This document shows, in pieces, positions 19,588-59,600 of a stretch of 64,000 bases of DNA. The translations under genes were made by a program, and so were the position numbers. The notes beneath the pieces are model-generated. The model worked only from the letters and a program-made list of their open reading frames with translations, had not been told where the DNA came from and did no database searches. Numbering within the stretch: the first letter of the stretch is position 1; each line of letters begins with the position of its first letter. Source of the stretch: a virus (taxonomy: Duplodnaviria; Heunggongvirae; Uroviricota; Caudoviricetes); the IMG/VR virus record IMGVR_UViG_3300032050_000059; one strand, written 5' to 3'.

Positions 19588-19789
19588 AACAATCGTTTAA
19601 ATGGTTAATTAATGCTATATTTATCCTCTAATAATTTGATTCTCTGTTCTACCAATTTACCTATTAAAAGTGTCTATGGGTCACACTGCCTCTCTCTAAC
19701 TCACACTAAATCAATGAGTTATGAGTTGGAAGTAATGATGAGCCCACCCTAAGGAATGGTAATTCCCCACCCATATATATAATAGAAGA

Positions 19790-20251: not shown

Positions 20252-20733
20252 AATGCCCTTTCAGTTTTTTGTGTGGTGACTCCACATTTTACAGTTAATA
20301 ATTATTAAGGAAAAGAACAGGGGGGCTATCCCGACTCTCCAAATTCTGCTGGGGGTTTCTGGATGGAATACCCTCCCCTCCCATGCACATAATAGGTTTT
20401 TGGTTCCACGTGGAACATGGGGGGATTGTCAACCTATAGGCTTACATATGGGGGTGTTTTGTCAGCTTATAGGTTTACAAAAAAAATTTTGTTGGTTATA
20501 TGGAGGATGTGTTATAACTTTGGGGCGGTGGGTGGGTTAGGTGATAGTTCCGTCCTATGGATATATGAGCAATTGGTGGTTTGAAGTGGTTGACGGATGT
20601 CTCTGAGCTAAGAATATAAGAATGGGGAAGGTGTATCTGGTTGAAAATAAGACATAATATAGCAATAGTATAAAAGATTGTATTTGACTATGTTATAAAG
20701 TCTTCCTATCTTTGTATCAACTACATTAACAAT
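20252..20733. promoter_or_regulatory. divergent intergenic switch region: G-runs, direct repeats, a perfect palindrome and a host-type promoter
   Basis: The 14-bp perfect palindrome GTTCCACGTGGAAC (20403-20416). Two roughly 30-bp direct repeats, GGGGGGATTGTCAACCTATAGGCTTACA (20419-20446) and GGGGGTGTTTTGTCAGCTTATAGGTTTACA (20450-20479). Several further G5-6 / C-rich runs. Local GC is well above the genome background. Confidence 0.55.
20683..20714 (+). promoter_or_regulatory. Bacteroidetes sigmaA-type promoter (-33 TTTG / -7 TAnnTTTG) for the rightward operon
   Basis: TTTG (20683-20686), then a 20-nt spacer, then TATCTTTG (20707-20714), about 20 nt upstream of ATG 20734. This matches the Bacteroidetes consensus spacing of 19-21 nt. 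Confidence 0.5.
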
Positions 20734-21078
20734 ATGAAGGTCATATTACAAAAGCTGAAGAAACAGGAGGAGGATAGCTATCTGGTAGCAGAGAGGTATT
20801 ACACCATCCTGTCAGCTATTAATGATCTTAAGCTGACACAAAGGGAAATACAGCTTTTGGCTTTTACGGCTATTAGGGGGAATATATCCTATGCCAATAT
20901 AAGACAGGACTTCTGTGATAAGTATGGCACCACCAACCCCTCTATAAACAACATCATTTCCAGGCTGAAGAAGATGGGGGTGCTGGTGAAGGATGGGACA
21001 AAGGTGAAGGTGAACCCCAAAATACTATTAAACTTTGAAAACGATGTCACCCTTGAAATCAGACTTGTTCACAGATAA
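20734..21078 (+). CDS. hypothetical protein (114 aa), possible HTH regulator
   Basis: First ORF of the rightward arm. Contains the segment LTQREIQLLAFTAIRGNISYANI. Confidence 0.4.
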   Translation: MKVILQKLKKQEEDSYLVAERYYTILSAINDLKLTQREIQLLAFTAIRGNISYANIRQDFCDKYGTTNPSINNIISRLKKMGVLVKDGTKVKVNPKILLNFENDVTLEIRLVHR

Positions 21079-21085
21079 TAAGCCC

Positions 21086-21502
21086 ATGAGCCTTCCTGTT
21101 AAGGATTGGATCATTAGAAAGCTGGCTGTGAAGATGATGCTGGGGGAGAAGACCATTGAGGCTGTTGTCAACCATCAGTTTCAGGAAGCTAACAAGGCGC
21201 TGACAAAGCATAAGAGTTTGGAGATCAGTGGGTTTGGCAAGTTCTTCTTCAATGAGGGAAAAGCTGTCAAGCAGATGGCGAAGTTTGAAAGCCAGAAAGA
21301 GCTGTTCAGCAGGATTTTGGAGAACGAGGTGTTGACGGACCAGAAAAGGAAGTCGATAGAGCTCAAGCTGCAAATAGCCCTAGATAACATAAGAGACTTA
21401 AAACCAAAGATGTATGTCGATGATTTCCCAGATTTACGAGGGGTGGAGGAACAATTTGATACCCCCAGAGAAGATGAGGACAGCGATCATAGAGACGAGT
21501 AA
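21086..21502 (+). CDS. hypothetical protein (about 139 aa; internal Met start chosen to avoid overlap)
   Basis: ORF 21035..21502 trimmed to the MSLPVKDW start. Confidence 0.35.
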   Translation: MSLPVKDWIIRKLAVKMMLGEKTIEAVVNHQFQEANKALTKHKSLEISGFGKFFFNEGKAVKQMAKFESQKELFSRILENEVLTDQKRKSIELKLQIALDNIRDLKPKMYVDDFPDLRGVEEQFDTPREDEDSDHRDE

Positions 21503-22427: not shown

Positions 22428-22746
22428 AAAAACTACATACGTAAATGCTGAGCTTGATTGGGCAGAACAGCAGCTTTCCTCATGGAAGGCTTATGTGGAT
22501 GCCAATCCCCTGCATGAACTTAAGGATAGAATTGAGTGGAAACCAACGGCTAAAGGAGGCATGCTTCCTATGGTGATCGCATCAATCGAAGCACAGGGTA
22601 AGTTTATACAGGAAACAATGAAGAACTACTTAGCTCTTCTTGAGGTGGTGGAGAAACTACGTGAGAAAGAGGAAGCTAAAGTGGAAATCAGAGGTAATGG
22701 AGAACTAAGCTCCATGGCTGAAGACTTCCTTAAGAGCAGAAGATAA
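22411..22746 (+). CDS. candidate terminase small subunit (111 aa)
   Basis: Small coiled-coil ORF immediately upstream of the large terminase. Its stop overlaps the large terminase ATG. The call is positional only. Confidence 0.3.
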   Translation: MAKTIKKTTYVNAELDWAEQQLSSWKAYVDANPLHELKDRIEWKPTAKGGMLPMVIASIEAQGKFIQETMKNYLALLEVVEKLREKEEAKVEIRGNGELSSMAEDFLKSRR

Positions 22747-24773
22747 TGAACGAGCTTAAGAGCATAGACTACAAAGACTGGTTTATTAACCAGGGGCGTC
22801 TGCCTGACCGTGAGTCTGCAGAGTATAAGCCGTTTTTTGACTTTCATAGAGAAATATGCTTGAACGGGTGCTTAATGAACGGGGTGTATATCAACCCATT
22901 CCTTTACTGGCACCTGAATGTTTGGCATACAGAGGTGGATGTTGTAGATGAAAGAGGACGCATCTTCCAGAAATATGCAAATCCCCTGTTACGTGATAAC
23001 GAATGGATTGTGACAAATGAGATTGACAGGGCACAACAAGATAAAAAGGGCTTGGTGATACTAGGAATACGACGTTTTGCCAAGTCTGTTTTAGAGGCTT
23101 CTTACATAGGGTGGGGCGCAACATTTGATGAAAACTCCCAGAATGTGATCGCTGGGTTAAATGCCCCCGACATAAAGCTGATCACAGATAAGCTGGACAA
23201 GGGCCTCAACTTCCTTCCTGAAGCATGGAGATGGCAGAGAGTTGAGGACAACTGGAAAAACCAAGTCACCCTAGGTATTAAGACTCGTGGAGGAGAACGT
23301 ATACCATTTTCTCAAATCCTCATCCGTAACTTGGATGAAGGTAATAACGAAGAAGCTATTGCAGGTACCAAACCTCGTAAACTAATCATTGACGAGATTG
23401 GTAAGGGCAACTTCCTCAGAGGCTTTCAGGCAGCTGTGCCAGGTTTCACCACACCTTATGGTTGGGGATGTTCTCCTCTACTTACAGGTACAGGTGGTGA
23501 CATGAAGAAATTCATGGATGCCAAGAGCCTAATGTTTGACGTGGACAACTTCAACTTTCTCACTTATAACAATGAGAAAGATGACAGAAGGGTGCACGGA
23601 CTTTTCATTTCCTATAAGTATAGGATGGAAGCTAAGGAAGAATCCACACTTGGAGCATTCCTTGGACATTCAGAGGACAGCGATTTGAACAATGTCCCTA
23701 TGCTTGTAAGTAATGAGGAGAAAGCAAAGGAGATAACAGAGAACAATCTCGAACGCCTTAAAAAGGCTGGAGATAGAGTGGCCTATCTGAAGGAAAAGAT
23801 GTACTATCCTATGGAGGTGGATGACATCTTCCTGAATGAGGACACAAATATATTTGACATAGAAGCAGCCAAGCGTCAAAAAGGTAGGTTGCTCATGCAG
23901 GGGCGTACAGGAACTCCTGTTATTCTGTTTCATGATGGTGAGAACATCAGCCATGAGTTTACAGATAAACAGCCCATAACCAACTTCCCCCTAAAGAACA
24001 GTGACTTGAAAGACGCTCCTGTTGTCATCTACGAATTTCCCATCGAAAATCCTCCATATGGACTTTATGTGGCTGGTGTGGACCCATATAGACAAGGTCA
24101 AGCTGCATATTCCACCTCTCTTGGTAGTGTGTACATTTATAAAAGAATGCATGACATAACAGGAGAGAAATATCAGGATATGTTCGTAGCTTCGTACTGC
24201 GCTAGACCTGAAAAGAAGGAAACATGGGAAGAACAGGCTAGATTGCTCATCAAATATTACAATGCTAGAACGCTTTGTGAGAATGATGACATCTCCTTCA
24301 TAGAATACATGAAAGCAAAGGGAGATGCACACTATCTAGAGAAACAACCTGACTGGCTGAAAGAAGTGGTGCCTGGAACAACAGTGAAACGTGACTATGG
24401 TGTACACCGTTCTGCAGATAAGATAAGAGACTACCTGCATAACTGTCTGAAGAAGTATATGGAGGCTGTGATATATCAGGAGAAGGATGAAGATGGAAAG
24501 GTGATTAAAGAAGTGACAGGTGTATCAAAGATATTTGATCCCGTGCTGTTGGAAGAGATAATTCAGTATAACGATCAAGGTAACTTTGACCGTATTGTGG
24601 CTGCAGAACTTGCTATTGCTCAGGCTCTTAAGATGGACCCTGTGATGGGCAAGGTGGGAGGATCATCAGATCCTAGAGTGAGTGCGATATTCAAACCCAA
24701 CAAGAAGAACGTATTGTTCACAGAATCTCGTGGGTTATTTAATAAAAGGAAAAAAAGTAAACTATTTTTATAA
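22746..24773 (+). CDS. terL: terminase large subunit (ATPase plus RNaseH-like nuclease)
   Basis: 675 aa. Walker B-like KLIIDEIG and P-loop-like ILGIRRFAKS. C-terminal nuclease-like VAGVDPYRQG. Immediately followed by the portal gene. Confidence 0.65.
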   Translation: MNELKSIDYKDWFINQGRLPDRESAEYKPFFDFHREICLNGCLMNGVYINPFLYWHLNVWHTEVDVVDERGRIFQKYANPLLRDNEWIVTNEIDRAQQDKKGLVILGIRRFAKSVLEASYIGWGATFDENSQNVIAGLNAPDIKLITDKLDKGLNFLPEAWRWQRVEDNWKNQVTLGIKTRGGERIPFSQILIRNLDEGNNEEAIAGTKPRKLIIDEIGKGNFLRGFQAAVPGFTTPYGWGCSPLLTGTGGDMKKFMDAKSLMFDVDNFNFLTYNNEKDDRRVHGLFISYKYRMEAKEESTLGAFLGHSEDSDLNNVPMLVSNEEKAKEITENNLERLKKAGDRVAYLKEKMYYPMEVDDIFLNEDTNIFDIEAAKRQKGRLLMQGRTGTPVILFHDGENISHEFTDKQPITNFPLKNSDLKDAPVVIYEFPIENPPYGLYVAGVDPYRQGQAAYSTSLGSVYIYKRMHDITGEKYQDMFVASYCARPEKKETWEEQARLLIKYYNARTLCENDDISFIEYMKAKGDAHYLEKQPDWLKEVVPGTTVKRDYGVHRSADKIRDYLHNCLKKYMEAVIYQEKDEDGKVIKEVTGVSKIFDPVLLEEIIQYNDQGNFDRIVAAELAIAQALKMDPVMGKVGGSSDPRVSAIFKPNKKNVLFTESRGLFNKRKKSKLFL

Positions 24774-27367
24774 TGGCTATCATTAGATATACCAAGGATG
24801 CTACGATTAGATATGCCTATCTAAACATATTCCCTGATCAGTTCAAGACTGACAAGGAAAAGCAAGATGAGAGTTGGATAAAGAACACCATGGACTACTT
24901 TGCAAACAAGGCATATGCTGAGTATGTAAAGAATCGTGACACCTTTGTCAAGAATTATGACTTAATGAAAGGCATCCTTCGCATGGAGGACTTCTATCAA
25001 GAACCTCAGGTGAGAAGTTTTACAGATATGATGACAGCTGATTTACAGCTTCCTGCATATGTAAAGATGTATTCCATCATAACCACTCCTGTTAACGAGC
25101 TGGTTGGCGAGATATCAAAACGTCCAGACACCTTCCGTGTTAAGGCATTTGATGATGACAGTAAAGCTGAAGAGCTACAGTTTAAGACAGAGATTCTTCA
25201 GCAATACGTTTTAAATGAGGCTAAACAAAAAATCATACAGTCTGCTGCTCTAAGTGGAGAAGAAATTTCTGATGAGGAATTGCAGCAGATGAGTTTTGAA
25301 CAAGTGAAAGAACAATTGGATGCTTACACATCTGTGGCTGAAAAATGGGCCAACCATGTTCTCACTTGTCAGAAAGCAGAGTTTAACTTAAAAGAAAAGT
25401 CAGAAGACGCCTTCCGTGATATGTTGATATCTGGAAGGGAGTTCTATCACATATATGAAGACAACTCAAAACTTGGATTTAATATTGAGGTGGCTAACCC
25501 AAAGAACACTTGGTTTCTTACAACTCCTGATCGTAAGTGGATCTCTGATCCTACAGGTAGAGCTCAGGGGGCTTATGCCGCTGGTACAGTTCAGGTTATG
25601 GAGCTTTCAGAAATCATTGAGAGTATTCCTGACCTCACCAAAGAAGAGATTGATCACTTACGTTCATCTCTTCAAGACTATGGATTGATTAATGTACGTG
25701 AGTCCAACCTTGGTAATCCTGATGCGATTCCTGGTATAGACTCTGTAATGTATGATACATATGATCCTCTTGTTCTTCAAACTCGTATGATTATTGAATC
25801 AGAGATGAAGGAGAACAATGATGGATTAAAAGACTTCTTGGGACTTACATCTAACGTATCTTCCTTTGGATACAAATACGTTGTTGTTCGTTGTTACTGG
25901 ATTAGTAAGAAGAAGATTGGTAAGCTCATCTATCTAGATGAATTGGGCAACGAACAGTCTGTTCTGGTAGACGAGAACTACAAATCTGGTACTGTTCCTA
26001 CACAACAGAGTTTGGAGTGGGGATGGATTAATCAGTGGTATCAGGGTACAAAGATTGGTCCAGACATCTATCACATCAAACCATTCAAGCTTCTTAACTA
26101 TTGTCCCATCATTGGTACAACTTATGAAGTGAAGAACACGGAGGCTAAATCTCTGGTGGATTTGATGAAGCCTTTCCAAGTGTTGTACAACGTTTGTATG
26201 AACCAGTTGTACAAATTGCTTGAGAAGGAAGTGGGTAAGGTGTATTTGACTTCCATCAGACATATTCCTGTTCCAAAGGATGGTGATGCTCAAGATGCAT
26301 TAGACATCTGGGAAATGGAAGCACGTAACAGGGGTGTTGTATTTATTGATGATAGCCCTGAGAACTTAAAGAGTCCTTCAAGCTTCAACCAGTTTAGGGA
26401 TATTGACCTTACACGTACACAGGAGATTCAATCTCGTTATACACTTGCTCAACAAATGAAGAATGAATGTTGGGAACTAGTAGGTTTGTCTAAGCAACGT
26501 CTTGGTTCTGTATCAGCTAGTGAGTCTGCAACAGGAACTAACACAGCCATTCAACAATCCTATTCTCAGACAGAACCTTTGTTTGTAGCACATGAATATG
26601 TTCTTGGACAGCTATATCAAGCCATCATTGATGCTGCCTTGTATGTAGAATCCAAGAAGCCTCAGTCTACACTCTCTTACATTACAAATGAAGGAGAGTC
26701 AGCATTTGTTTCTGTAAATGGTTCTGATTTAAGATTCCGTGATTTGAAAGTGTTCTTGACTAATCGTCCTGAGGATACACAAATGTTTAATGAGCTTCGT
26801 CAACTTGCTCAGGCTGTTATTCAGAACGGTGGAAGCTTGTACGATGTGATTGAGCTTTACAGCACCAAGTCTATGAGAGCCATGAAGAAGGTGTTCAAAG
26901 ATTTGCGTGATAAACAAGATGCCATCCAGCAACAGCAATTGCAACAAAAACAGCAAGAGCTTGATCAGCAACAACAACAAGTTGCAGCTCAATTGCAACA
27001 AGCTCAATTGCAACATGAACAACAAATTGCTCATGATGATTATCAGAAAGAGCTTGATAGAATCAATAAGAAAGAGATTGCTATAATTTCAGCCACAGGT
27101 TATGGAAAAGTGGCTTCCGAAGATGCAAACTCTAATGCTGTTCCTGATGTGTTGGAAGTGAGCAGGCTTGCTAATGAAGAAACATCTGCAGCAAATCAAC
27201 ATCAGGCAAAGCTTATGGAAATAGCATCCAAAGAAAGACAGGCTGCTGAAAAGCTAGCTCTGGAAAGAGAGAAGCTTCAGGTGGATAGAGAAAACCAAAA
27301 GAATGACTTAGCCGTAGCTAAAGAAAATGCTAAAGGAAGAGCTAAGCAACCTAAATCCAATAAATAA
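24773..27367 (+). CDS. portal protein
   Basis: 864 aa. Its ATG overlaps the terminase stop (TAATGG). Gene order is terminase-portal-scaffold-capsid. Q-rich C-terminal coiled coil QQQLQQKQQELDQQQQQVAAQLQQAQLQ. Confidence 0.55.
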   Translation: MAIIRYTKDATIRYAYLNIFPDQFKTDKEKQDESWIKNTMDYFANKAYAEYVKNRDTFVKNYDLMKGILRMEDFYQEPQVRSFTDMMTADLQLPAYVKMYSIITTPVNELVGEISKRPDTFRVKAFDDDSKAEELQFKTEILQQYVLNEAKQKIIQSAALSGEEISDEELQQMSFEQVKEQLDAYTSVAEKWANHVLTCQKAEFNLKEKSEDAFRDMLISGREFYHIYEDNSKLGFNIEVANPKNTWFLTTPDRKWISDPTGRAQGAYAAGTVQVMELSEIIESIPDLTKEEIDHLRSSLQDYGLINVRESNLGNPDAIPGIDSVMYDTYDPLVLQTRMIIESEMKENNDGLKDFLGLTSNVSSFGYKYVVVRCYWISKKKIGKLIYLDELGNEQSVLVDENYKSGTVPTQQSLEWGWINQWYQGTKIGPDIYHIKPFKLLNYCPIIGTTYEVKNTEAKSLVDLMKPFQVLYNVCMNQLYKLLEKEVGKVYLTSIRHIPVPKDGDAQDALDIWEMEARNRGVVFIDDSPENLKSPSSFNQFRDIDLTRTQEIQSRYTLAQQMKNECWELVGLSKQRLGSVSASESATGTNTAIQQSYSQTEPLFVAHEYVLGQLYQAIIDAALYVESKKPQSTLSYITNEGESAFVSVNGSDLRFRDLKVFLTNRPEDTQMFNELRQLAQAVIQNGGSLYDVIELYSTKSMRAMKKVFKDLRDKQDAIQQQQLQQKQQELDQQQQQVAAQLQQAQLQHEQQIAHDDYQKELDRINKKEIAIISATGYGKVASEDANSNAVPDVLEVSRLANEETSAANQHQAKLMEIASKERQAAEKLALEREKLQVDRENQKNDLAVAKENAKGRAKQPKSNK

Positions 27368-27897
27368 TGTTTGATAGGCTAATAGACCTACTAACAGGCT
27401 GGTTTGAACAATTGCTTCCTTTCTTCATCGTAAGGGATTATGAGGAAGCAGTTGTTCTAAGGTTTGGTAGGTTCCACAAGGTGGCTAAACCTGGTTTCCA
27501 CTGGCGCATCCCTTTTGTGGATGAGCCTATGGAACAGCATGTTGTGGTCACTACTATTAGCCTGGCTCCCCAGAGCTTATACACAAAAGACAAGCAGAAC
27601 ATTGTGGTGAAAGGTGTGATTAAGTATAGAATCTCTGATGTTCAAACCTTCCTTCTGGAAGTGTATGATGCTCAGGACGCTATATCAGATATGACCCAGT
27701 CTATCGTTAAGAACATCATCATGGATAAAACCCTGGATGAATGCATAGATCCTGAGATAGACAACACCCTCACGAAGAAAGCTAGGGTGGAAGCTAAGAA
27801 GTGGGGAGTGGAAATCCAACAGGTAACCCTCACTGACCTAGCTCCAATTCGTTCTTTCAGGCTTATAAACGATACCATCGTAAACAAACTTGATTAG
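27367..27897 (+). CDS. minimal SPFH/band-7 (stomatin/prohibitin-like) domain protein
   Basis: Colinear with QmcA/stomatin SPFH: EAVVLRFGRFHKVAKPGFHWRIPFVDEP (cf. WTVERFGRYTKTLQPGLSLVVPFMDRI), LAPQSLYTKDKQNIVVKGVIKYRISD, KKWGVEIQQVTLTDLAP (cf. NPWGIKVTRIEIRDVRPP). Confidence 0.7.
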   Translation: MFDRLIDLLTGWFEQLLPFFIVRDYEEAVVLRFGRFHKVAKPGFHWRIPFVDEPMEQHVVVTTISLAPQSLYTKDKQNIVVKGVIKYRISDVQTFLLEVYDAQDAISDMTQSIVKNIIMDKTLDECIDPEIDNTLTKKARVEAKKWGVEIQQVTLTDLAPIRSFRLINDTIVNKLD

Positions 27898-28019
27898 AGT
27901 AAATTAGATTAATGCTATATTATCTACGAAAAACCCTCATATAGCAACATAACTCTTTGCTATTCAATTATATCTATCTATTTTTACAGGCGTATAAACC
28001 AAATTAAAATAAACTACAT

Positions 28020-29306
28020 ATGGCTGAGAACCTTGATAGTCCGTCATTCGGCAACTTTAGTATTGAAAATACTATGGAAATGGGACCTGGGGGAGCAGAA
28101 TTGTTAAACGATCTGTTGTCTCCTGAGACTTCTACAAGCAACCCTGATGGTATTCAGGAGATTGTAAAGAATGTAGAAGATCCTGCCCCTGCTCCAAAAC
28201 CTGATGTTCCTAAGGGAAAAGAAATTGTCCCTAAAGAAGATGGTAAAGAACCTACAGGTCAAGACCTCATCTCAAGCTTCCTTGGTGATAACACTGATGA
28301 AGAAGAGGCTGAGGATACACAACCCACTGACAATCAACCAGTTAAAAAGAAAGCACCTGAAGCAAAACCTGCTGAAGCTGCTCCTGCTGATGAAGAAGAG
28401 AGCGAAGAGGGTGATGAGCAAGTGAGTCAATTTACAGCTCTTTCCCGTGATCTCTTTAAACTTGGTGTCTTTTCAAAAGATGAAGAAGAGGAAGATGTAA
28501 ACATCTCCACTCCTGAAGAATTCCTTGAGCGCTTCCAAAATGAGAAGAAGAAAGGAGCTGTTGAAATGGTACAAAACTTCATTGGTCAGTTTGGTGAAGA
28601 CTATCAACAAGCATTCGACGCTATATTCGTAAAAGGTGTTAGTCCTAAAGAATACTTTGGTACCTACAATAATGTAGTGAGCTTTTCTGAAATGGATCTG
28701 TCACAAGAGAACAATCAAGTGGCAGTGATAAAGCAAGCATTAGCTGACCAAGGTTTTGAGCCTGAGGACATTAACACAGAAGTTGAAAGACTTAAAAACT
28801 ATGGTGATCTTGAGAGCGTAGCTACAAAGCACCATAAAGTGTTGGTTAAAAAGGAAGCCGCAAAGCTCTCACAAATGGAGCAAAAGGCTGAACAAGAACT
28901 CCAACAAAAACAGGCAATTAAAAACCAATACATCCAAAACGTTCAACAAGTTTTACAAGATAAGTTGAAATCTAAGGAGTTTGATGGAATCCCCATCAAT
29001 CCCAAGTTGGCTAACGAACTACAAGACTTCCTACTGGTAGATAAGTACAAAACTCAGTCTGGTGAAACCCTGACTGATTTTGACAAGACCATCTTGGAAT
29101 TGAAGAGACCTGAGAACCATGCAACAAAAGTGAAGGTTGCTCTCTTGCTCAAAATCCTAGAAAAAGATCCCACCCTATCTACCATCCAAAAAACAGGCGT
29201 TTCAAAGAAATCAAACGAACTGTTTGGGGAAGTGGCTAGACAAGTGACTCGCACTAAGACAGCAAGTAGCTCTCAGCCTTCTAAACAAAATTCATGGTTC
29301 ATTTAA
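28020..29306 (+). CDS. acidic coiled-coil protein, candidate scaffolding protein
   Basis: 428 aa, very E/D/K-rich, with the low-complexity tract PEAKPAEAAPADEEESEEGDE. Sits between the portal and the major capsid gene. Confidence 0.45.
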   Translation: MAENLDSPSFGNFSIENTMEMGPGGAELLNDLLSPETSTSNPDGIQEIVKNVEDPAPAPKPDVPKGKEIVPKEDGKEPTGQDLISSFLGDNTDEEEAEDTQPTDNQPVKKKAPEAKPAEAAPADEEESEEGDEQVSQFTALSRDLFKLGVFSKDEEEEDVNISTPEEFLERFQNEKKKGAVEMVQNFIGQFGEDYQQAFDAIFVKGVSPKEYFGTYNNVVSFSEMDLSQENNQVAVIKQALADQGFEPEDINTEVERLKNYGDLESVATKHHKVLVKKEAAKLSQMEQKAEQELQQKQAIKNQYIQNVQQVLQDKLKSKEFDGIPINPKLANELQDFLLVDKYKTQSGETLTDFDKTILELKRPENHATKVKVALLLKILEKDPTLSTIQKTGVSKKSNELFGEVARQVTRTKTASSSQPSKQNSWFI

Positions 29307-29333: not shown

Positions 29334-30887
29334 ATGGCAATTCAAACAATCCCAGGTCTAACTGGCTTCACGTATGCTCGTGTCGCATCTATGGACAAGC
29401 GTGCTGTGGGTAAGCTAACTGACGCTAACCACCTGGAGAGCTTTCACTCAACTGAGCCTGCTGATTACGATAAGAAAATCATCAGCCTCTACACACAGAG
29501 CTCTCTTTACAGCAATGACTTCCTAGACATGATCAACAAAAGCACGCCTTATTACATTGATAATAATAGCGATGCTTGGAAATGGCAAGTAGCTGTTCCC
29601 TACAAATTCCCTAAGATTATCGACATCCCTGCTTCAACTCTTGAGTTGAGCAAGCCTGGTATCGATGGTCAAGAGTTCCAATTGGTAATTGACACAAACG
29701 AGTTCTCTAAGAACGCAATCGTTTCTGTTGGTTCTCGCCAATATGGTCCTCGCTTTTACGTTATTAAGGATCCAGTTCCTTGGAACATGGGCTTCCTTTA
29801 TAGCTTCACTTTGGTTACAGACAATCCAACTGTAGACTTCGTTAGCCCTACCTTCTTGCAAGTGGGTATCGAACTTGAGTTGGTTGATGCTGCAATTGGT
29901 GAGTTCGATCAAGATTTGTTAGGTCTTCCTCGTTTGGGTGAGCAAATCACAATGTTTGAATCTTTGGGTTCTGCATATGGTTTTGAGCACAAAATCACTG
30001 AGTGGGCTGATGACAAAATGATGCGTGACTCTGCAGGACGTCCTTTGGATATCCTTGTTTATGCACCTCAGCGTCGTAACCAACTTCCTTTGACTCGTAA
30101 CGATGTTAAATGGGAGCCATTCATTGAGTTCTGGATGCGTAAGTCTATGCTTGAGTTGAAAGTTAAGCGTATGATTTGGTCTCGTCCTGGTACTGTTAAG
30201 ACTAACGGTAGCAAGCAAGAACTTAAGCGTACATCTGCTGGTGTTTATCACAGAATGCGTAATAACGGTAACTTGGTTCAGTACAACCGTGGAGAATTCA
30301 CTGCAAACTTGATTCGTTCAGTGTTTGGTGATTTGTTCTATCGTCGTGTGGATGTTAAGGACCGTCGTGTTAAAATGTATACTAATGAAGCAGGTTTTGA
30401 CGTGTTCCAACAAGCTTTGAAGACAGACGCTTTGAACAGTGGTTTGACATTCATGGCTGATAGCGGAAACCGTTACATGCAAGGAGAAGGTCAACACATC
30501 ACTTACAACTTTGCATTCGATGCAATGGTTACTCGTGAGACTGGTCGTGTTGAATTGATTCACTTGAAAGAACTTGACCTGCCTCAATCTAACCTTGAAT
30601 TTGGTCAGAACAAGAAGTCAACTCCTGTATTCATGGTGTTCGACGTATCTCCAATGTCTGATGGTTCTTTGGTTAATAACATCCGTGAAGTTCGTATGAA
30701 GGGTGCACCTTCTATGACTTGGGGTTATATCGATGGAACTCGCCACCACTTGGGCTTTGCTAAGTCTCAGGGTATGAGCTCTGCGAACAAATTCCCAGGA
30801 TATGAAATCTGGATGAAGGATCGTTGTGATGTATTCATTGAAGACTTGTCTCGTACAGTCTTGATTGAGGAAATCCCACAATTCTAA
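29334..30887 (+). CDS. major capsid protein
   Basis: 517 aa. Gene order fits. Extreme translation-optimised codon usage (Arg almost exclusively CGT; GGT/GCT/GTT/AAC/GAC preferred), unlike neighbouring genes. Followed by a multi-hairpin element. Confidence 0.6.
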   Translation: MAIQTIPGLTGFTYARVASMDKRAVGKLTDANHLESFHSTEPADYDKKIISLYTQSSLYSNDFLDMINKSTPYYIDNNSDAWKWQVAVPYKFPKIIDIPASTLELSKPGIDGQEFQLVIDTNEFSKNAIVSVGSRQYGPRFYVIKDPVPWNMGFLYSFTLVTDNPTVDFVSPTFLQVGIELELVDAAIGEFDQDLLGLPRLGEQITMFESLGSAYGFEHKITEWADDKMMRDSAGRPLDILVYAPQRRNQLPLTRNDVKWEPFIEFWMRKSMLELKVKRMIWSRPGTVKTNGSKQELKRTSAGVYHRMRNNGNLVQYNRGEFTANLIRSVFGDLFYRRVDVKDRRVKMYTNEAGFDVFQQALKTDALNSGLTFMADSGNRYMQGEGQHITYNFAFDAMVTRETGRVELIHLKELDLPQSNLEFGQNKKSTPVFMVFDVSPMSDGSLVNNIREVRMKGAPSMTWGYIDGTRHHLGFAKSQGMSSANKFPGYEIWMKDRCDVFIEDLSRTVLIEEIPQF

Positions 30888-51026: not shown

Positions 51027-53690
51027 ATGGCCTCTTATACAGACATAATACCCCAGTTTAACCCCTATATCCAGCAGCTTCCTGTGGAGGCTATGGTGCA
51101 GGTGGGTATGGAGAAACAGAAGCGCTATGATGAGGGGGTCCAAAAGATTCAGTCTCAGATAGATAGTGTAGCTGGCTTGGACATATACCATCCTTCAGAT
51201 AGAATGTATTTGCAGTCTAAACTGAATGAACTTGGTAACAATCTTAGAACTGTGGCCGCTGGTGATTTCTCCAACTATCAGCTTGTCAACTCTGTAGGAG
51301 GTATGACTACCCAGATTGTTAAAGACAAAAATGTACAGAATGCTGTACGTTCTACACAACAGATTAGGAAGCAACAAACTTTGATGGACCAGGCTAGGGA
51401 GAAAGGTACCCTCCATAGAAACAATGAGATTTTCTTCAACGACCAGGTGATCTCCTATCTGAATAACAATAAAGTGGGACAGGTATTTGGTGAGAACTAT
51501 CAACCGTACACTGACTACCAGAAAAAGTGGTTGGAAGTCCAAAAGAGTCTTGGTATAAAGGAAACACAAACAGATCTTCCATTTGTAATGCAAGATGGTA
51601 AGATAGTCATTGACCCAAAGACCAAGAAGCCTATGGTCAATGATTACATGGTAAGGGAAACCTTCAAAGGTGTTGATGCTCAAAGACTTAAGGAAGCCAT
51701 CATGGCAGCTATGGATGATAATGACTATGCACAGATGAAGATTGATGCATATGTTAGCTACAAGGGATACACACCTGATATGCTTATTAAGGAAGCTGAT
51801 AGCACTTATAGGTCTAACAAAGAGGAGTTGACAAAGACTATAGACAATCTAACCATCCTGAAAACTCAGAATGTTGGAAATCAACAGATGACCAAGGATA
51901 TAGATGTTCAACTTGAACAATATAAAAAACAGCTGAAGAATACAGAAGATCAGTATAGAGATGTAATAGCAGGAATTCAGGCAAATCCTGAGGGATACAA
52001 ACAGAAGCTATTTGCAATGAATTCTATAAACAACTTTGCTAATAGTTTCTCAAACATATCCCATATTCAAAATATTGTAGATAGTCCCATCAAAAAACAA
52101 ATGAATGAGGACAGAGCCTACAACTTCAAGGTGGTTGAGTTTAACACAAAGAATGCTCAGTGGCAGAAAGAGTTTGGTTTAAAAGTAGCTACAGAATCTA
52201 GACTTGCAAATAAAGAAGCATTTGACCAAGCACTAGCCTTATATAAAGAAGGATTGGGTCCTAATCCTCTTGGTCCAACTACAGCTAAATATGTTGGAGC
52301 TCCTCCTACAGATAAAGAGATATTGGATGGAATGGTAGAAAGCTTTAAACAAGGAGCTGACATAGACCAACTGAATAATGACAAGAATGCATTAAAGGTG
52401 AATTGGGCAAAGAACCAGCCTTCTAAAGCAGACTATGCAAAACAGAAAGGAATAGATCTTAAAAACTATACAGACGCACAATATAGAGCTGATTTAGATA
52501 AACAATTCAACAGTGACTTAGCTGCATATAATTCAAACAAGAACTCTGTAGATGCTCCTACAAGAAAAATCCTTGGTCAGTATTCTGAGCTGGATAGATT
52601 GTATAAGCTTAAGGTTAATGCAATAAATGATGCAACTGAAAAAGCAAACGCACTTCATCCTGAAGTGACTGAAGAGGCAAATAAGCTATCTAACAATAAG
52701 GTGAGCTTTTTGGATTATACATTTAAAGATGGAAAACCTGGAGTGTATAACATACTAACAAAAAGTGCAAGAGAGATATACGAAGATATTCAATCTGGAA
52801 AAGCCACATTAAGAGTGGACAAAGCTCCTGGAGGATATATTGTACTTAGATATCCTGGTTCAAATATTACATATGAAATATCTAAGAAAGGTGGATTCTT
52901 TGGTTCTGACAAGGTGGGAGGAAAACAAACAAGAGAATTGCTTTTGTCTGTTCATGATACATACAACAGAGTAGGACAGTCTATTAAAAATAGAGATGCA
53001 GACTTTGCAAAAATACTTGGTGAAACTATCAACTCTGTAGCTCCAGTATCATCATTGCTTCCAAAGGGAGCAACAAGCACTCTTCTACCTTTGATAGAGG
53101 ATAAACTAGGAAGAGAGCAAAAAGGACAGACAGAGGAACTAGCTGGCTTTGTAAAAGGTAAGGATTTTAACTTTGACACTGTAAAAGAACTAGCTCTAAA
53201 TCCTGACACTAAGGTGACTCATACTACCTGGGGAGATAATGTATTCATTACAATGACTGGAATGCTAGGTAAAAATCTTGCAACTCAGAAGTTTAAGATT
53301 TCAAAGTCTGACTTTGCTACAATGTATCCAAATCTTGTTGACAATACAAATATGGATTTCTGGCAATCAGCAGCAGCAAATGGTAGCACCAACTACAAAT
53401 ATCACGTTGCTAAGAGCGCTTTGATGAATCCAGATGATGCTTTCACTTCTGGCACTTACGATATTCCATCTAAGAAATACATAGTGAAGGGTGATATCTT
53501 CTTTGATCAAACTGACAAAAACAACACCACCCCTGTTGTTTATGTAAAAAGTAAAAAGACAGGAAAGGTTGTTCCTATTCCTGGCGAGGTGTTTTCTACT
53601 TTTTCAGGTTCTGAAAAATCAATGTATCAAGTGAATGATCTGTTGATAGAGAACTACTTTAAAAATAATAATCTAGATGCCGATTTTTAA
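51027..53690 (+). CDS. large virion protein (887 aa), K/N/D-rich
   Basis: ORF. Candidate -7 promoter element TACATTTG at 51005-51012. Ends with tandem stops TAATAA. Confidence 0.45.
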   Translation: MASYTDIIPQFNPYIQQLPVEAMVQVGMEKQKRYDEGVQKIQSQIDSVAGLDIYHPSDRMYLQSKLNELGNNLRTVAAGDFSNYQLVNSVGGMTTQIVKDKNVQNAVRSTQQIRKQQTLMDQAREKGTLHRNNEIFFNDQVISYLNNNKVGQVFGENYQPYTDYQKKWLEVQKSLGIKETQTDLPFVMQDGKIVIDPKTKKPMVNDYMVRETFKGVDAQRLKEAIMAAMDDNDYAQMKIDAYVSYKGYTPDMLIKEADSTYRSNKEELTKTIDNLTILKTQNVGNQQMTKDIDVQLEQYKKQLKNTEDQYRDVIAGIQANPEGYKQKLFAMNSINNFANSFSNISHIQNIVDSPIKKQMNEDRAYNFKVVEFNTKNAQWQKEFGLKVATESRLANKEAFDQALALYKEGLGPNPLGPTTAKYVGAPPTDKEILDGMVESFKQGADIDQLNNDKNALKVNWAKNQPSKADYAKQKGIDLKNYTDAQYRADLDKQFNSDLAAYNSNKNSVDAPTRKILGQYSELDRLYKLKVNAINDATEKANALHPEVTEEANKLSNNKVSFLDYTFKDGKPGVYNILTKSAREIYEDIQSGKATLRVDKAPGGYIVLRYPGSNITYEISKKGGFFGSDKVGGKQTRELLLSVHDTYNRVGQSIKNRDADFAKILGETINSVAPVSSLLPKGATSTLLPLIEDKLGREQKGQTEELAGFVKGKDFNFDTVKELALNPDTKVTHTTWGDNVFITMTGMLGKNLATQKFKISKSDFATMYPNLVDNTNMDFWQSAAANGSTNYKYHVAKSALMNPDDAFTSGTYDIPSKKYIVKGDIFFDQTDKNNTTPVVYVKSKKTGKVVPIPGEVFSTFSGSEKSMYQVNDLLIENYFKNNNLDADF

Positions 53691-53691
53691 T

Positions 53692-56600
53692 AAAGATTTA
53701 CCAGCTTTTGATAAGCCACTTGAAGGATTTCCCAAAGAGCAAGAAGTCTATAAGGGAAAGGTGTTGCCTGACACCCTGCATCCTGCTGTCCCAAATCTAG
53801 ATTCAGACTTTGGACAGGTGGGTACTGGAGATGTTCAAGACCTATTCAGAATGAACTCTGTCCAATCAGGACCTATATTCGGATCTACAATAAGTGAGCT
53901 TTCTAGAAACAAGAGGTATGATTATTATAAGCCAGGAACAAACTATGAAGATTTATATGCAAGAGTACAACCCTGGTACAAGCAGATTGGTAACGGTCTT
54001 GTAAAAGGGGGTGCCTTTATGGTGGGCACCTTTGCACAATCATTCAATAGTATTCCAGAAACAATAAACGCTGTAGCAAAAAAAGATTTATCTGAGCTTG
54101 CTGGAAAAGACTCTTATGTTAGTCCTATAGATGATTGGTATAGAAATCTAGAAGATCTCTATCCCAACTACTATTCAGACTATGAGAAAGCACATCCTTT
54201 TAAAAGCATCCTAGGTAGTGGCTTTGCTAACACCTTTGGAGACAAGTTTGTTAAGAACCTTGGATTCATGGGTGGTGCTATTGCTGGTGCTGTAGTGCAG
54301 GATTTTGCCATAGGTGCTCTTACACAAGGACTTGGTGAAATTCCTTTGCTATCTAACCAGATAGGAAAAGCAGCTCTTTACATGAATAAAATCCTATCCT
54401 CAGAAAGCAGGGTGGGAAGAGCATTGGGTGCTAGTGAAAAGGGTATACTTACATCGTTTCTAGATAGCGGTGTGCAAGCTGGTAGAACAGCTGAGCAGCT
54501 CAATAGAATGGAAACATTGGCTCAATTGGCTGCTTCTAGAAAGATTAACAATCAGTTTAGATATGGACTTAATCTGTGGACATCTGCTCTCACTGAGGCA
54601 GGAATTGAGTCAAGAGATGGATACAGAACATTGAAGACTGATCTGATTGATCAATACAAGCTTGACAACTATGGATTAGAACCCACTGGAAAAGACCTGA
54701 AAGATATTGAGGATATTGCTACATCTGCTATGAATGCTAGGGAAATAGGAAACCTTGGCATCCTCCTTGTATCAAACGCTATACAGTTTGAAAACATATT
54801 AAGACCTTTCTCTTCAGCAAGAGTAGGTGTAACCTCTCCTATATTCCAGGAAATTGCTGGTAAGCGCATTGCTCTTCAAGATGGACTAATGGGTGGCTAT
54901 TCAGAAATAGTGCCTAAGTCTACATTTGGAAAGATAGTTAGAGACATCAAACCATATGCACCTGAACTGTTTACAGAAGGTGTGTTTGAAGAGGGTGGAC
55001 AGTTTGCAATAGAAAGAGGTACGTACGACTATTACAATAAGAAGTATTTTGATCAGAAAAATAACAAATCAAGAAACGACTTAGCTGAATTCATTGATTC
55101 TATAGGAACTGGACTAGTTGACCAATTCAGAACAACAGCTGGTTGGGAGAACATGTTCCTAGGAGCTTTGACAGCAGGACTCACTGGTAAAGCAAAGAGT
55201 GTATATAGTAACATAAAAGGTACAGGATCAAAAGCTCAGATAGCTGCTGAGATTAACAATCTCAACTCTAGCCAGCTCATGGGTGTATTTGAGAACAACT
55301 TTGAAAATGCTGCTCAACAGCTTAAGGCTTCTAAAGACATGGAAGCTGCTGTTAAGAAGAGAGATATATTTGAATACAAGAATGCTCAGTTTAGAGCTTT
55401 GTTCTCTTGGGCAAATGCCAGAATGCAGGGCAACAGATATGGTCTTCTAGAGGAAGAAATTAAACTTGCCAAAGAACTTCCTAATGAGCAATTCAAACAA
55501 ATGTTTGGATTTGATGCTACGGCAGACAACAGACAGGTTGTAAATGCATACCTGTCATTGGTTCAAGAGGAAGCTAATAAGATTAAGAGAAACTACGACA
55601 AGATCAATGAGTTCTTTGTAAACCCTTACAAGTATATTAGAACTCCTAAGACTGATGAGGAAATAACTGAAAGCGAGAACTACAGGAAGTATGAGAACTA
55701 TAAGACAGCAATGACTTATTTCCCATCCTTGATTGATCATGCTGACAGAAGAACCGATGAGATACAGAAAGAACTGATTGACATCAATCCTCTATTGTCT
55801 GTAGATATAGTTAAGAAACTTGGTAGTGTTGACTCGCTATTAGACTTGGCTAAAGAATATGAGAAAGAGGCTACAACATCTCTTGGTCTAATTAGTGACA
55901 TCACCACTCCTGAGGAAAGAAAGAAACTGGAGAGAAGAGCTAAGACACTTAGAAACCTAGCAGAAAAAATATATGGTGTTACAGACACCTACTATTTAGT
56001 AGCAAAAGATGAGATGTCTAAAGATGTTCTTTCTAGGAAGGAAAATCTACCAGGCGACTATCTTAAGCTATTTGACAACCTAGTAAACTTTGAGATTAAC
56101 GGAAGAGACCCTCTAAGAACTGATAAGAACATCAAACATCCTCTGGATGTAGAAAAGGCTATCTCTCTAGCTGTAGATCTTAACAGACTGGCTGAGATGA
56201 AGAAAGATGCAGGAGATGCATTTGATATTCTATCTAATCCTGAGAAAGGGTTTGACGAGTTTAACAAGGTGGATGAGAACAGACTTCCTCCTAAACATTC
56301 TCCTGAGTCAGAACTCACTCCTGGTAGAGAGTATGAAACTTCAAATCTTGGTAAGTATAGAACCAGGAAGATTGCTGATGGAAGATACCAAGTGATTAGT
56401 CCAGACAAGACTATTGTATCTACACATCCTTCAAAAGAAGAAGCATCTGCCACTACTAAGTATTTGAATGAAAATCTAAGCAGCCTACTTAAGGTGACTG
56501 TGGTTAGAGATAATGGAGATGGCACTATCAGAATCACTGACTCTAATGGTGACATTCAAGATATTCCTAAAGCAGATATATTAAAATACACTCCTCTTGA

Positions 56601-59600
56601 AACCCAAGAGGAAAAGATAGCTAAGCAGAAAGAGCAAATAGCTAATGAGCAGAAAGACCTAGAGGCAGATTCTGGAAACGTAAACACAGGAAACCCTGCA
56701 GAACCTTACGGTAAAGAAAGTGCTCTTCCTGATATAAAGATATTGTTCAGCTCAAGCACTACAGAATCTGAAGGTAGTGATGATCCTAACTGGCAGAAGA
56801 ATGCTGCTCTGTCTCCTATTCACATTAAGAATTCTAGAGAGTTTTTAAACAAGGCACAGGGTTTTGCTAATAGAGCAAACCTAAGAGCCATCCTTATCAC
56901 TCCTCTATTGGAGAAAGCATATGGATTAGAGGGACTCACTCAAATCTCCTATGGTGTCAGAAATGAGGACCTAGCAACACAAGAACAAAAAGACAAGTTC
57001 TTAAAAGACACTACAGATTTAAACAATGGATTCATTGCCCAAGTGTTTGTAGAACAAGTAGGTAGTGATCTATACTTTATTGATAAAACTGGAAACAAAC
57101 TTGGTAAGTTTGGAGAGCAATTAGATGAAACCAAACTTGGTAATGTTGTTTTCCAGACAATGCGTAGAGCTGCTCTTAAAGATAGTCAGGGTGGTACAAA
57201 AGCAAGAAGTGGACAGGAGGAAGAAGCTAAAGTATATCTAGAAGCTTGGAAAAAAGAAAGAGCAAACATATTTGCTACAGATCCTAACGCCTCTCCTACA
57301 GTTTATGAGTTCAACATATCTAGAGGTATACCTATAGATGGTGATACTCCTAATCATGTAGCAGGCACACTGATTACATCTGATCCTAAGGAAGAAAGAC
57401 AAGTTCTTAAGGGTCAATCAATTATACAGATTCCAACAACCAAGACTATCACATTCAAAGGAAGAGCTATAAACTTCCCTAATGGCAGACCAGTTCTTGT
57501 ATATGGTGACAATGTTGCCTTCTTGAACAATGTGAAGTTGGATGGCAAGAGAGCTCAGGTGATATATGCTGTTATTGAGAAGATGGCTAATGACATCACT
57601 CAGAGAGCTAATGCTGGAAAGAAGATTGTATTCAGTAAGACAAAAGAAGCCAAGTTCCTGCAGAACATTCTCTATTGGAGAACAGGAGATACAAAAGAGG
57701 GTTCTAATCAGATAAACATTTCTGAGGATGGAACCACAATATCTTTTGCTGGTAAGTCATTCCCTATTGCTAAACTGGCTGAGAATAAGAAGGAATTAAT
57801 TGAGGCCATCAGTAACTCCTACCACAATACAAACAACAAGAGCTTGTCTGAGGAAATGTTCAGCAAGTCCTTTACAGAGTTCTACATTGAGAAGGGAGAA
57901 CTCAAGTCTCGTGATTGGGCTAACTACCAGTCCTACTTGTTGTCCTCTACATTCCCAGATGGATCTAAGAGAGCTGCAGCTGACACCCCTCTTACAACTA
58001 AAATAGCTATTCCTCTTTCTGAGATTCCTTATACACATAAGCAGAAATACTCAACTCTTATAGGACTTGAGCTTCCTATTGGTGTAATAAACAAACCTGC
58101 TGCAGAAGCTAAAGAAACTGTTGTAGAAGCTCCTAAAGGTAAGTTTGATTACAACGGAACAAAAGAGAACACCACTCCTATTCTGAGCTTTGGTAATGTA
58201 TCCTTCACTGTTAAGGAAGGAGAAGATCCTCAGTTCTTGGTAGACAGCGAGGAGTTTAAGAAGACACAAGATAACCTTGTTAAGAAACTAAGACAAAACT
58301 CCCCAGAGGCAGATGAGGAATCATTGGTTAAACAAGCCAATGGTGTCATCCTCAGTGTTGTTAGAAAGGAAGTGGATAATGATCTAAAGACTGCTACAGT
58401 TGAGGAAGTTGTTCCCACTGCTGAGGAAGTAAAACCTACTGAGGAAGTAAAACCTGTTGAAGAGAAAAAAGAAGAAGAACCTAAGAAGACACAGTTTGAT
58501 CCTAAGAAGACAAAGAAGAGAGGAAACCTATTCAGAGCTGTAAGTGAGACTGATGAGTCTGAGAGAATGACTGAGGCTGATATTGAAGCCTTTAAGAAAT
58601 GGCATGCTGAGAAGGTACCTCAAATCCCTTATGAGATTCTTGGACAGATGGTAACCATCAATCCTAATAGAAAGGCATGGGGTGTGTTTGAAAATGGTGT
58701 GGCTAAGTTTGTACGTGGTGGATTGAGAGCTACAGAATACCATGAGATATTTCATGGCATATGGAGAGGATTGCTAAACGCTGATGAAAGAGCTGCTATT
58801 GTAAAAGAGTTTAATGCTAAAGAGGGTAGCTTCAAAGACAGGCTTAGTGGTAAGACTATCAACTTTGCTGATGCTACAGAAGAGCAAGTGGAAGATAGAC
58901 TAGCTGATGACTTCAGTGATTACAGAAAAGGTAAGCTTGCTGCTAGAACTTTAGGAGATGCTATCCGTGAGTTCTTCAAAAGAATCATGGATTTCTTCAA
59001 GTCCTTTGTAGCCAAACCTACATTAAAGGACCAACTGTTTGATAATATTGAGCAAGGTAGATTCAAAGATAGAGAGCTTGCACCTGAGGTTAAGAACCTA
59101 GGCCCAGCTTACAGAGCTGCAGAAGGTCTTAACGAACAGCAGACTAACGAGTTTGTTCAGGATATGACAGCCCTATCTTCTGCCATGATCTTTGGAAATG
59201 GAAAGATAGGTGCAATTGATAAGTCAGCCATCTATGATATTAGAAAGATAACCAGCAAGCAAGTGTTTGATGAGATTAAAAACATCTACACTGAGCAGGG
59301 CTGGATGGATCAACTTAGTGAAAACACCTGGAATGATCTGGTTGAAAAGACTAAGCGCTCCCTAAAAGCCAACCTTAAGGTTTCCTTTAATGAGGAAGAC
59401 TTGGTGAACATCAACGATGAGCAAAGTAATAACAGAGACTATGCTCCAGAACCATTCTCTACAGACTATAAGAAGTCTGCTCCTGTTGGAATAAAGTTCA
59501 CATCTTCTACTATTCCTAAGACCAAAGCAATGAGTCAGGAGGGTAGAACATCTCTCACTCTTCCTGATCTAAAAGATACTAATAATCTTTATTCACTGGT

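Follow-up and report, generated by a model that had tools for sequence, protein, structure and literature searches.

Proteins of the SPFH superfamily (stomatin, prohibitin, flotillin and HflK/HflC) are currently pictured as cages, anchored and closed by a coiled coil, within which membrane patches and their proteases are set apart, SPFH1 being the membrane-proximal domain in the solved cages. The cellular members, among them stomatin, HflK/HflC, QmcA (YbbK), prohibitin and flotillin, share an SPFH1+SPFH2 core with RxG, PG and TKD-like motifs, to which are added a transmembrane (TM) or hairpin anchor, the CC1/CC2 coiled coil and a C-terminal cap, for a total of ~250–420 residues. Phage genes of this kind have stood in annotations for twenty years (T4-like phages 44RR, Aeh1 and RB43, Vi01-like phages, Kayvirus, Burkholderia phage CSP3 and satellite AH14b), and our literature search found no functional study of them. 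Here we analyze one such gene in a 64,000-nucleotide stretch of an uncultured tailed virus (IMG/VR record IMGVR_UViG_3300032050_000059; the whole stretch is called the window below). Its product of 176 residues, referred to here as mini-SPFH, appears to consist of little more than the SPFH core, and its gene occupies a slot directly behind the portal gene that is filled differently, or left empty, in phages with nearly identical capsids. The gene and its parts are as follows.

27365–27369, plus strand: TAATG overlap of the portal stop and the SPFH start, the SPFH ATG sharing one base with the portal TAA.
27367–27897, plus strand: mini-SPFH gene, 176 residues plus stop; assigned by Pfam Band_7, AlphaFold2 (AF2), Foldseek and constancy of length.
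27367–27420, plus strand: residues 1–18, N-terminal amphipathic helix MFxxLIDxxxxxWxxxxP; consensus of 45 family members, helix 2–16 in the model.
27421–27846, plus strand: residues 19–160, SPFH1+SPFH2 core; from the stomatin alignment (19–161) and the strand and helix order of the model.
27847–27894, plus strand: residues 161–176, short tail with an RSxRL motif; predicted local distance difference test (pLDDT) score 62, then 49.

The sole Pfam match of the product is Band_7 (PF01145; E = 4e-28, 99.1 bits against a cut-off of 23.6, residues 21–160), and phmmer against the PDB aligns residues 19–161 with stomatin (3.5e-13), HflK (5.8e-12) and QmcA (2.7e-10). An AF2 model computed from an alignment of 45 family members has a mean pLDDT of 91.7 and takes the SPFH fold, its best Foldseek matches being stomatin, HflK/C, QmcA, prohibitin, erlin and flotillin (probability 1.00, E down to 1.5e-14) with TM-scores relative to the query (TMq) of 0.61–0.78 overall and 0.77–0.78 at the top (human stomatin 0.77); for the cellular proteins compared above the values are E 1e-14 to 1e-8 and TMq 0.67–0.78, with stomatin, HflK and QmcA at 1e-14 to 1e-11. 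Profile and model both point to a genuine member of the SPFH/Band-7 superfamily with the SPFH1+SPFH2 alpha/beta fold, in agreement with an earlier reading of this DNA made from the letters alone (the sequence-only reading). That reading had the alignment with cellular SPFH domains run along the whole chain, which holds for residues ~19–161 but not for residues 1–18, a family-specific helix, or for the low-confidence tail at 161–176. Within the core R32, G34, G43, P49, Q69 and G147 are invariant among the 45 members, and R165 of the tail is shared by at least 90% of family members.

The architecture outside the core sets the protein apart. The N-terminal helix occupies the position of the cellular TM or hairpin anchor, and the RSxRL tail stands where cellular SPFH proteins have the coiled-coil wall of the cage. 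As had been read from the translation, a crude hydropathy test finds no TM segment (best 19-residue Kyte-Doolittle mean 1.16, six of the first 24 residues being charged), and no coiled coil is present, since the chain ends 16 residues past the last SPFH strand and the AF2 model has no helix beyond residue 146. Across the 45 members the N-terminus is amphipathic with a high hydrophobic moment, 3–7 of its first 24 residues are charged, and the 19-residue hydropathy lies mostly under the 1.6 threshold. Lacking CC1/CC2 and the cap, mini-SPFH would therefore be unable to build a closed cage in the known way. HflK and HflC carry their SPFH domains in the periplasm behind an N-terminal TM segment and are encoded by paired genes, whereas mini-SPFH is a single gene whose product has neither TM segment nor signal peptide; this topology, together with scores below the NCBIfam equivalog cut-offs (TIGR01933 for HflK, 84.5 bits against 159.4; TIGR01932 for HflC, 61.3 against 134.4), rules out HflK/HflC as a name for it. 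The ratio of nonsynonymous to synonymous substitution rates (dN/dS) is ~0.065, a rough value given that dS is saturated in many pairs, and is similar to those of the terminase and portal genes, consistent with a real gene under purifying selection.

Among described structures, the isolated stomatin SPFH domains (mouse 4fvf, 4fvg and 4fvj; Pyrococcus PH1511, 3bk6) are soluble, SPFH-only and of comparable size, and superpose with root mean square deviations of 1.1–2.0 Å over ~105 residues, but these are laboratory truncations of anchored proteins, whereas mini-SPFH would be a natural truncation with its own helix and RSxRL tail. Phage-borne SPFH domains are likewise found in Kayvirus MbpS, in the PHROG 200 'lipoprotein' of T4-like and Vi01-like phages and in the 'prohibitin/band 7' proteins of Rhizobium and Agrobacterium phages; those proteins, however, are ~260–390 residues long and described as membrane-anchored or as lipoproteins, while the mini family lacks their anchor and tail, and their matches to the query are weak (phrog_200 E = 1e-7; tblastn 22–35% over partial length). 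Members of the mini family itself have been deposited as 'HflK' (UniProt A0A6J7WFI0, 173 residues, uncultured Caudovirales phage; BFVD TM-score 0.87–0.88 over 172 columns, 27% identity) and, in JGI entries, as 'regulator of protease activity HflC', automatic names whose 'HflK/HflC' label is unjustified.

The family is large. When 1.84 billion cluster representatives were searched exhaustively with HMMER, 5,785 of them matched, and the best 150 are nearly all full-length (168–190 residues) and 31–53% identical to the query; clustered at 50% identity it comprises at least 150 clusters, and a profile search added 701 further members, many on contigs of 65–176 kb. The product is exactly 176 residues long in more than 120 clusters at 72–93% identity and has the same length in hundreds of relatives, and the N-terminal helix and RSxRL tail are common to family members. 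For comparison with bacteria, species-representative genomes were scanned for DNA encoding PGLHWKIPF, a sample biased by the motif, which yielded at least 120 loci. Among the 120 listed, 119 encode long cellular SPFH proteins that score at most 90 bits against the mini-SPFH hidden Markov model (HMM) and extend for 76–277 further C-terminal residues, often with a second SPFH open reading frame (ORF) adjacent as in hflK–hflC pairs; the remaining one, at 211 bits, scores as a mini form and comes from a 6.7-kb contig of a metagenome-assembled genome (MAG). Mini-SPFHs of ~175 residues apparently form a large phage-specific family that is sharply separated from cellular SPFH proteins by score. Our literature search found no paper describing it, and the recognition of a distinct, widespread phage SPFH family with neither anchor nor coil appears to be new. 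That so large and constrained a viral family has neither anchor nor cage wall shows the SPFH1/2 module to be useful by itself, and mini-SPFH offers a naturally pared-down model in which to study the action of the module at a membrane. As a side observation, phage-sized mini-SPFH contigs have been deposited as bacterial MAGs, a 113-kb 'Cytophagia bacterium' (P0114) and the 6.7-kb 'Candidatus Saccharibacteria' (L191) noted above; both are probably mis-binned phage DNA, and as clues to the host they are weak at best. The host is probably a member of the Bacteroidota.

The surroundings of the gene were assigned by Pfam and PHROG profile scans of the window ORFs, with the following features flanking it.

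22746–24773, plus strand: large terminase (TerL); phrog_6681 4e-86.
24773–27367, plus strand: portal protein, 864 residues, with a variable Q-rich C-terminal tail; Pfam P22_portal 5.5e-15, phrog_6547 4e-93.
27898–28019, plus strand: conserved intergenic region, the 3' border of the cassette slot; aligns across relatives with SPFH, HExxH and empty slots and with the distant locus L091.
28020–29306, plus strand: scaffold-like protein, 428 residues, N-terminal half acidic and of low complexity; phrog_16294 (function unknown), directly before the capsid gene.
29334–30887, plus strand: major capsid protein (MCP), crass type; Pfam Crass_capsid 6.4e-26, phrog_11589.

The order TerL–portal–SPFH–scaffold-like–MCP bears out the earlier placement of the gene, as does the TAATG overlap with the portal stop, a junction that recurs in 36 of 45 SPFH-carrying relatives and suggests that the SPFH gene is translationally coupled to the portal gene. 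We infer the scaffold role of the 28020–29306 product from gene position alone; it has syntenic homologues in L091 and L097. Downstream of MCP lie ring and muzzle proteins (Pfam crAss_MUZ 4.2e-38, CrAss_Ring_2 8.7e-19, CrAss_Ring_1 2.7e-11). Because the virion module gives Crass_capsid, P22_portal, ring 1/2 and muzzle matches, the window is assigned to an uncultured crass-like phage, apparently distant from cultured members: the head module had 0 megablast matches among the 50,697 deposited phage genomes of INPHARED, hence no close cultured relative there, and a tblastn search of the deposited phage genomes with MCP matched only Leptolyngbya phage Lbo-JY46, at 26% identity.

The strongest evidence on function comes from close relatives fetched by way of an MCP profile, not of SPFH. 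The 80 loci so obtained have MCPs 96–100% identical, with 13–20 kb per relative, and the 63 that include the portal C-terminus were scored for what follows it. The SPFH gene fills the slot in 45 of the 63. In 16 an unrelated cassette takes its place, with two genes encoding an acidic protein of ~80 residues and an 84-residue HExxH mini-zincin. In the other two (L139 and L168) the slot is empty, the portal stop running straight into the conserved intergenic region, with the scaffold-like gene next. The SPFH gene is absent or replaced in 18 relatives whose portal and scaffold proteins are 82–87% and 63–88% identical, respectively. In a neighbor-joining tree of the portal proteins the states are interspersed, with L128 (HExxH) as sister to L121 and L115 (SPFH) and L139 (empty) beside L117 (SPFH). 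The SPFH genes themselves vary out of step with their flanks: in L055–L058 the flanking proteins are ~86–99% identical to those of the window and SPFH only 73%, and SPFH identities fall into two classes (72–79% and 83–98%), which suggests that SPFH alleles are exchanged by recombination independently of the flanks. In all comparisons the Q-rich C-terminal tail of the portal (26.9–27.35 kb) is a hot spot of divergence, and a sliding-identity test for a sharp cassette border around SPFH was suggestive only, the portal C-terminus being variable throughout. These comparisons mark the interval from the portal stop to the conserved region ahead of the scaffold-like gene as a cassette site prone to recombination; such a three-state site appears to be new.

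Since 16 of the 63 relatives carry another cassette and two carry nothing, the SPFH protein would not be needed to build this capsid; that a capsid 96–100% identical is built with it, without it or with a substitute argues strongly against an obligatory role in head assembly or maturation. On these genomic grounds the gene appears to be dispensable for capsid assembly, and its position in a head module is no indicator of its function. The SPFH, mini-zincin pair and empty states provide natural near-isogenic variants that can be compared for selective advantage.

The sequence-only reading had seen in this slot the usual place of a prohead protease, and in the gene a possible capsid-assembly or DNA-ejection cofactor. 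The likeness to prohead proteases (HK97/S78, T4 gp21/S77, ClpP/S14 and S49) is one of gene position alone, between portal and scaffold or capsid as in HK97-like modules; mini-SPFH has no sequence or fold similarity to them and no catalytic residues, and the module is of the crass type. No protease catalytic domain (S78, S77, S14, S49, U9/U35 and others) was found in the product, and general library scans found, in the ORFs scanned of the 64-kb window, no protease, ClpP, S49 or NfeD family, so that the earlier observation of a module with no recognizable protease stands. Stomatin/QmcA–NfeD operons have an adjacent NfeD/STOPP protease gene; none lies near mini-SPFH among the scanned ORFs. The searched text of the crAss001 structural atlas does not mention a prohead protease, and a review of the Crassvirales mentions none and describes the assembly mechanism as not established. 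In the syntenic module of Lbo-JY46 the order is terminase, portal, a 408-residue protein and capsid, with nothing between the portal and the 408-residue gene, and the mini-SPFH HMM had no match in the 25-kb Lbo-JY46 locus. We found no evidence that crass-type modules use a prohead protease, and therefore its absence here would be no anomaly in need of a substitute. The proposed tie to a prohead protease does not survive the 18 of 63 near-identical-MCP relatives that lack SPFH, and the cofactor role is not supported either, given a slot that is empty or replaced in relatives and a family found in varied positions elsewhere. Pursuing the slot as that of a protease would be wasted effort, as the evidence indicates that the capsid assembles without mini-SPFH.

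The alternative cassette is best described from one locus.

L124:7082–7550 (corresponding to the window slot 27367–27897): acidic and HExxH pair, identified as the ORFs in the slot.

It consists of two small ORFs in the same ~600 bp, with the TAATG junction to the portal kept (for example in L124), and is also found in L120, L125, L126, L128, L137, L138, L141, L142, L145–147, L153, L156, L158 and L162. The acidic partner has 77–83 residues (18 D/E against 5 K/R). The 84-residue protein carries an invariant HExxHxxHPxWSE motif and had no match in a Pfam scan; its AF2 model (pLDDT 89.8) retrieves as top PDB folds only zincin metallopeptidases (PprI/IrrE, selecase, abylysin, Wss1 and CapP), with weak E-values of ~1e-2, so that it is a putative minimal zincin-type metallopeptidase. 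It has homologues in 119 clusters. The same pair stands at the late-operon end of unrelated ~35-kb phages (L299:6805–7252, L300:6805–7252 and L301:6751–7270), where it comes after an endolysin and an RNase_H_2-like exonuclease and the acidic partner is 41% identical; the pair would therefore move as a unit between phage groups. Orthologous phages do carry an unrelated cassette with this putative mini-metallopeptidase in the slot, though not a recognized prohead protease, which goes only part of the way toward the refutation that the sequence-only reading had named for itself. As the missing prohead protease the HExxH protein was rejected, being mutually exclusive with SPFH, absent from empty-slot phages that have the same capsid, and found elsewhere at late-operon ends far from head genes.

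Elsewhere in the phage world the mini-SPFH gene keeps varied company. The order portal–SPFH–scaffold is seen in the window and in L091 and L096, which belong to other crass-like clades, and in L095, a 126-kb crass-like contig, a homing endonuclease is inserted between portal and SPFH. In L097 SPFH lies upstream of TerL and the portal is followed directly by the scaffold-like gene; in L092 and L094 it lies between a tail ring protein and a ~1500-residue protein, where the window has its muzzle-like gene; and in L093, a 176-kb myovirus, the order is sheath–tube–SPFH. Two further contexts are lytic: L098, in which a 2-TM holin, a signal-anchored (SAR-type) lysozyme, a spanin-like gene and a 66-residue ORF are followed by SPFH as the last gene, and L083, in which a holin-like ORF precedes SPFH and an M15 endolysin and a spanin-like gene are nearby. 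In every context the gene lies on the late strand, and in most of them it adjoins or overlaps the gene upstream. Between the window and L095/L096, SPFH is 51% identical, MCP 21% and portal 25–28%, which implies that the evolution of SPFH is decoupled from that of the head proteins. The gene appears to be mobile between unrelated phages and between positions. The L095 insert (L095:6000–6998) combines a NUMOD-type homing endonuclease with an 89-residue ORF whose hydrophobic N-terminus is lipoprotein-like.

We favor an explanation in which the SPFH gene is a dispensable accessory gene, co-expressed late, in a cassette slot of an abundant uncultured crass-like lineage. Of an SPFH protein its product would keep the membrane-proximal half alone, SPFH1 plus SPFH2 behind an amphipathic helix, without the coiled-coil wall and cap by which cellular SPFH proteins close into cages. 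Because it has neither signal peptide nor TM segment it would stay in the cytoplasm, and because the helix sits at the position of the stomatin membrane element and SPFH1 is membrane-proximal in the solved cages, the helix and the SPFH1 face would attach it to the host inner membrane at the inner leaflet, in the manner of stomatin, QmcA and flotillin. Late in infection, open lateral assemblies could there change a membrane microdomain, the likeliest target being a late membrane event (holin and lysis timing, or the access of membrane proteases to phage or host substrates) rather than the capsid. The preference for a late membrane event comes from the lysis-cassette contexts of L098 and L083 and from the precedent of Kayvirus MbpS, an SPFH protein encoded within the lysis region (PMC7150955) and thus similarly located. 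The part of this explanation that we hold with considerable confidence is that the gene is accessory, neither a head-assembly gene nor a substitute for a protease. That the protein is membrane-peripheral on the cytoplasmic face is somewhat more probable than otherwise, while a role specifically in late membrane events or lysis timing is put forward tentatively and is more apt to be wrong than right. The explanation as a whole we consider about evenly poised; it corresponds to the third option of the sequence-only reading, a membrane microdomain organizer used during infection, which remains viable and is the one that we prefer.

Several points weigh against it. Membrane association being a prediction, the N-terminal helix might serve instead for docking to proteins or as a packaging signal, and oligomerization is uncertain without a coiled coil. 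Only two of ~9 independent contexts adjoin lysis genes, and no lysis genes were recognized near the SPFH gene in the window. The gene often lies deep in virion operons with start/stop overlap, which is unusual for a moron; classic morons stand at module boundaries with their own signals. A copy elsewhere in the SPFH-less genomes is possible, as only 13–20 kb of each was examined.

Of the other explanations, two survive to a similar, limited extent. The first would have mini-SPFH act as a dominant-negative mimic or modulator of host SPFH–protease hubs, either cytoplasmic stomatin/QmcA–NfeD or HflK/C–FtsH, its capless subunit entering a host ring or binding a partner so that the proteolysis of phage or host membrane proteins is changed. 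The nearest sequence families are indeed HflK, HflC and stomatin, exactly the ring-forming SPFH1/2 part is kept while the cage-closing part is gone, and the mutually exclusive cassette, with its HExxH zincin-like mini-protein and acidic partner, is suggestive of a shared theme of proteolysis. On the other hand, the SPFH domains of HflK/C are periplasmic and mini-SPFH appears to have no export signal, the NCBIfam scores for HflK and HflC are far under their cut-offs, an NfeD partner is missing from the scanned ORFs of the window, and that the two cassettes are functionally linked is conjecture; we regard this explanation as unlikely. The second would make the slot an anti-defense or superinfection-exclusion cassette that guards the membrane against membrane-acting abortive-infection effectors or secondary infection. 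A three-state recombining site in near-identical phages is the pattern of host-interaction and counter-defense genes, SPFH alleles swap, the alternative cassette has a small, very acidic protein, and both cassettes move between unrelated phages. Yet genes for exclusion and anti-defense are usually early, and this one is coupled to late genes of the virion; PADLOC, whose library holds defense and not anti-defense proteins, gave no match; and the literature search found no experimental precedent for an SPFH anti-defense protein. We judge it improbable in the same measure.

A bolder combination of these ideas, which we offer as a doubtful speculation, is that the slot is a host-interaction cassette site whose two occupants, the capless mini-SPFH and the mini-zincin with its acidic partner, attack the same host target, a membrane SPFH–protease hub of quality control or defense. 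If that were true, mini-SPFH would represent a novel type of viral SPFH subunit, dominant-negative in effect, that opens or poisons the SPFH cages of the host; the other cassette would bring along a minimal protease of its own.

It is quite unlikely that the protein is virion-packaged cargo, ejected to act on the membrane of the next host at entry. The gene does stand among virion genes (ring–SPFH–~1500-residue protein; sheath–tube–SPFH), and the conserved helix could serve as a packaging signal, but the gene is replaceable in near-identical virion backgrounds and also ends lysis cassettes, and a term search of the crAss001 atlas text found no mention of an SPFH-like virion protein. The only proteome found for a phage SPFH protein, that of the Vi01-like phage Sajous1, gave 3 retrievals for gp200, the phage SPFH, against 311 for the top-listed gp140 assembly protein.

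Least likely of all, and largely refuted by the empty-slot relatives, is an obligatory role in capsid assembly, whether as a cofactor, as a substitute or partner of a prohead protease acting on portal, scaffold or capsid protein, or as a membrane platform nucleating the portal, as T4 gp40 is said to be: the translational coupling directly downstream of the portal, the use of the same slot in the distant crass-like clades L091, L095 and L096 and the presence of the gene within virion operons of other phages speak for it, but near-identical-MCP relatives have an empty slot or an unrelated cassette, L097 and Lbo-JY46 go from portal to scaffold directly, SPFH divergence is decoupled from that of the head proteins, and neither a catalytic motif nor a protease-family match was found, which leaves this role very improbable.

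Within the intergenic region at the 3' side of the slot, the element AATGCTATATTA at 27911–27922, 5' of the scaffold-like gene, is kept whether the slot holds SPFH, the HExxH pair or nothing, and also in the distant clade of L091. Two further copies in the window, with one mismatch each, lie at 19611–19622 (plus strand) and 20655–20666 (minus strand), near the divergent early/late junction; the window count of 3 compares with 0.65 expected, and 3 of 100 shuffles reach 3. The element is a candidate phage late promoter for the scaffold–MCP genes. A scan of the window for sigma-70 promoters and terminators gave no enrichment (21 against 25 expected, and 10 against 7.4), and a sigma-70-like match in the same intergenic region (27983–28010) was no better than chance.

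Two other features of the window were noted. An ORF of more than 3,441 codons at 53677–64000 (plus strand) runs off the window end; an NCBIfam scan of its first 1,108 residues gave no match, and we presume that it may encode a giant virion-associated RNA-polymerase-like protein, as in other crass-like phages. At the head of the late strand there is a Bac_DNA_binding (HU/IHF-like) match of 2.7e-6, most likely to the 155-residue ORF at 21035–21502 (plus strand); IHF-like genes are a conserved feature of crass-like phages.

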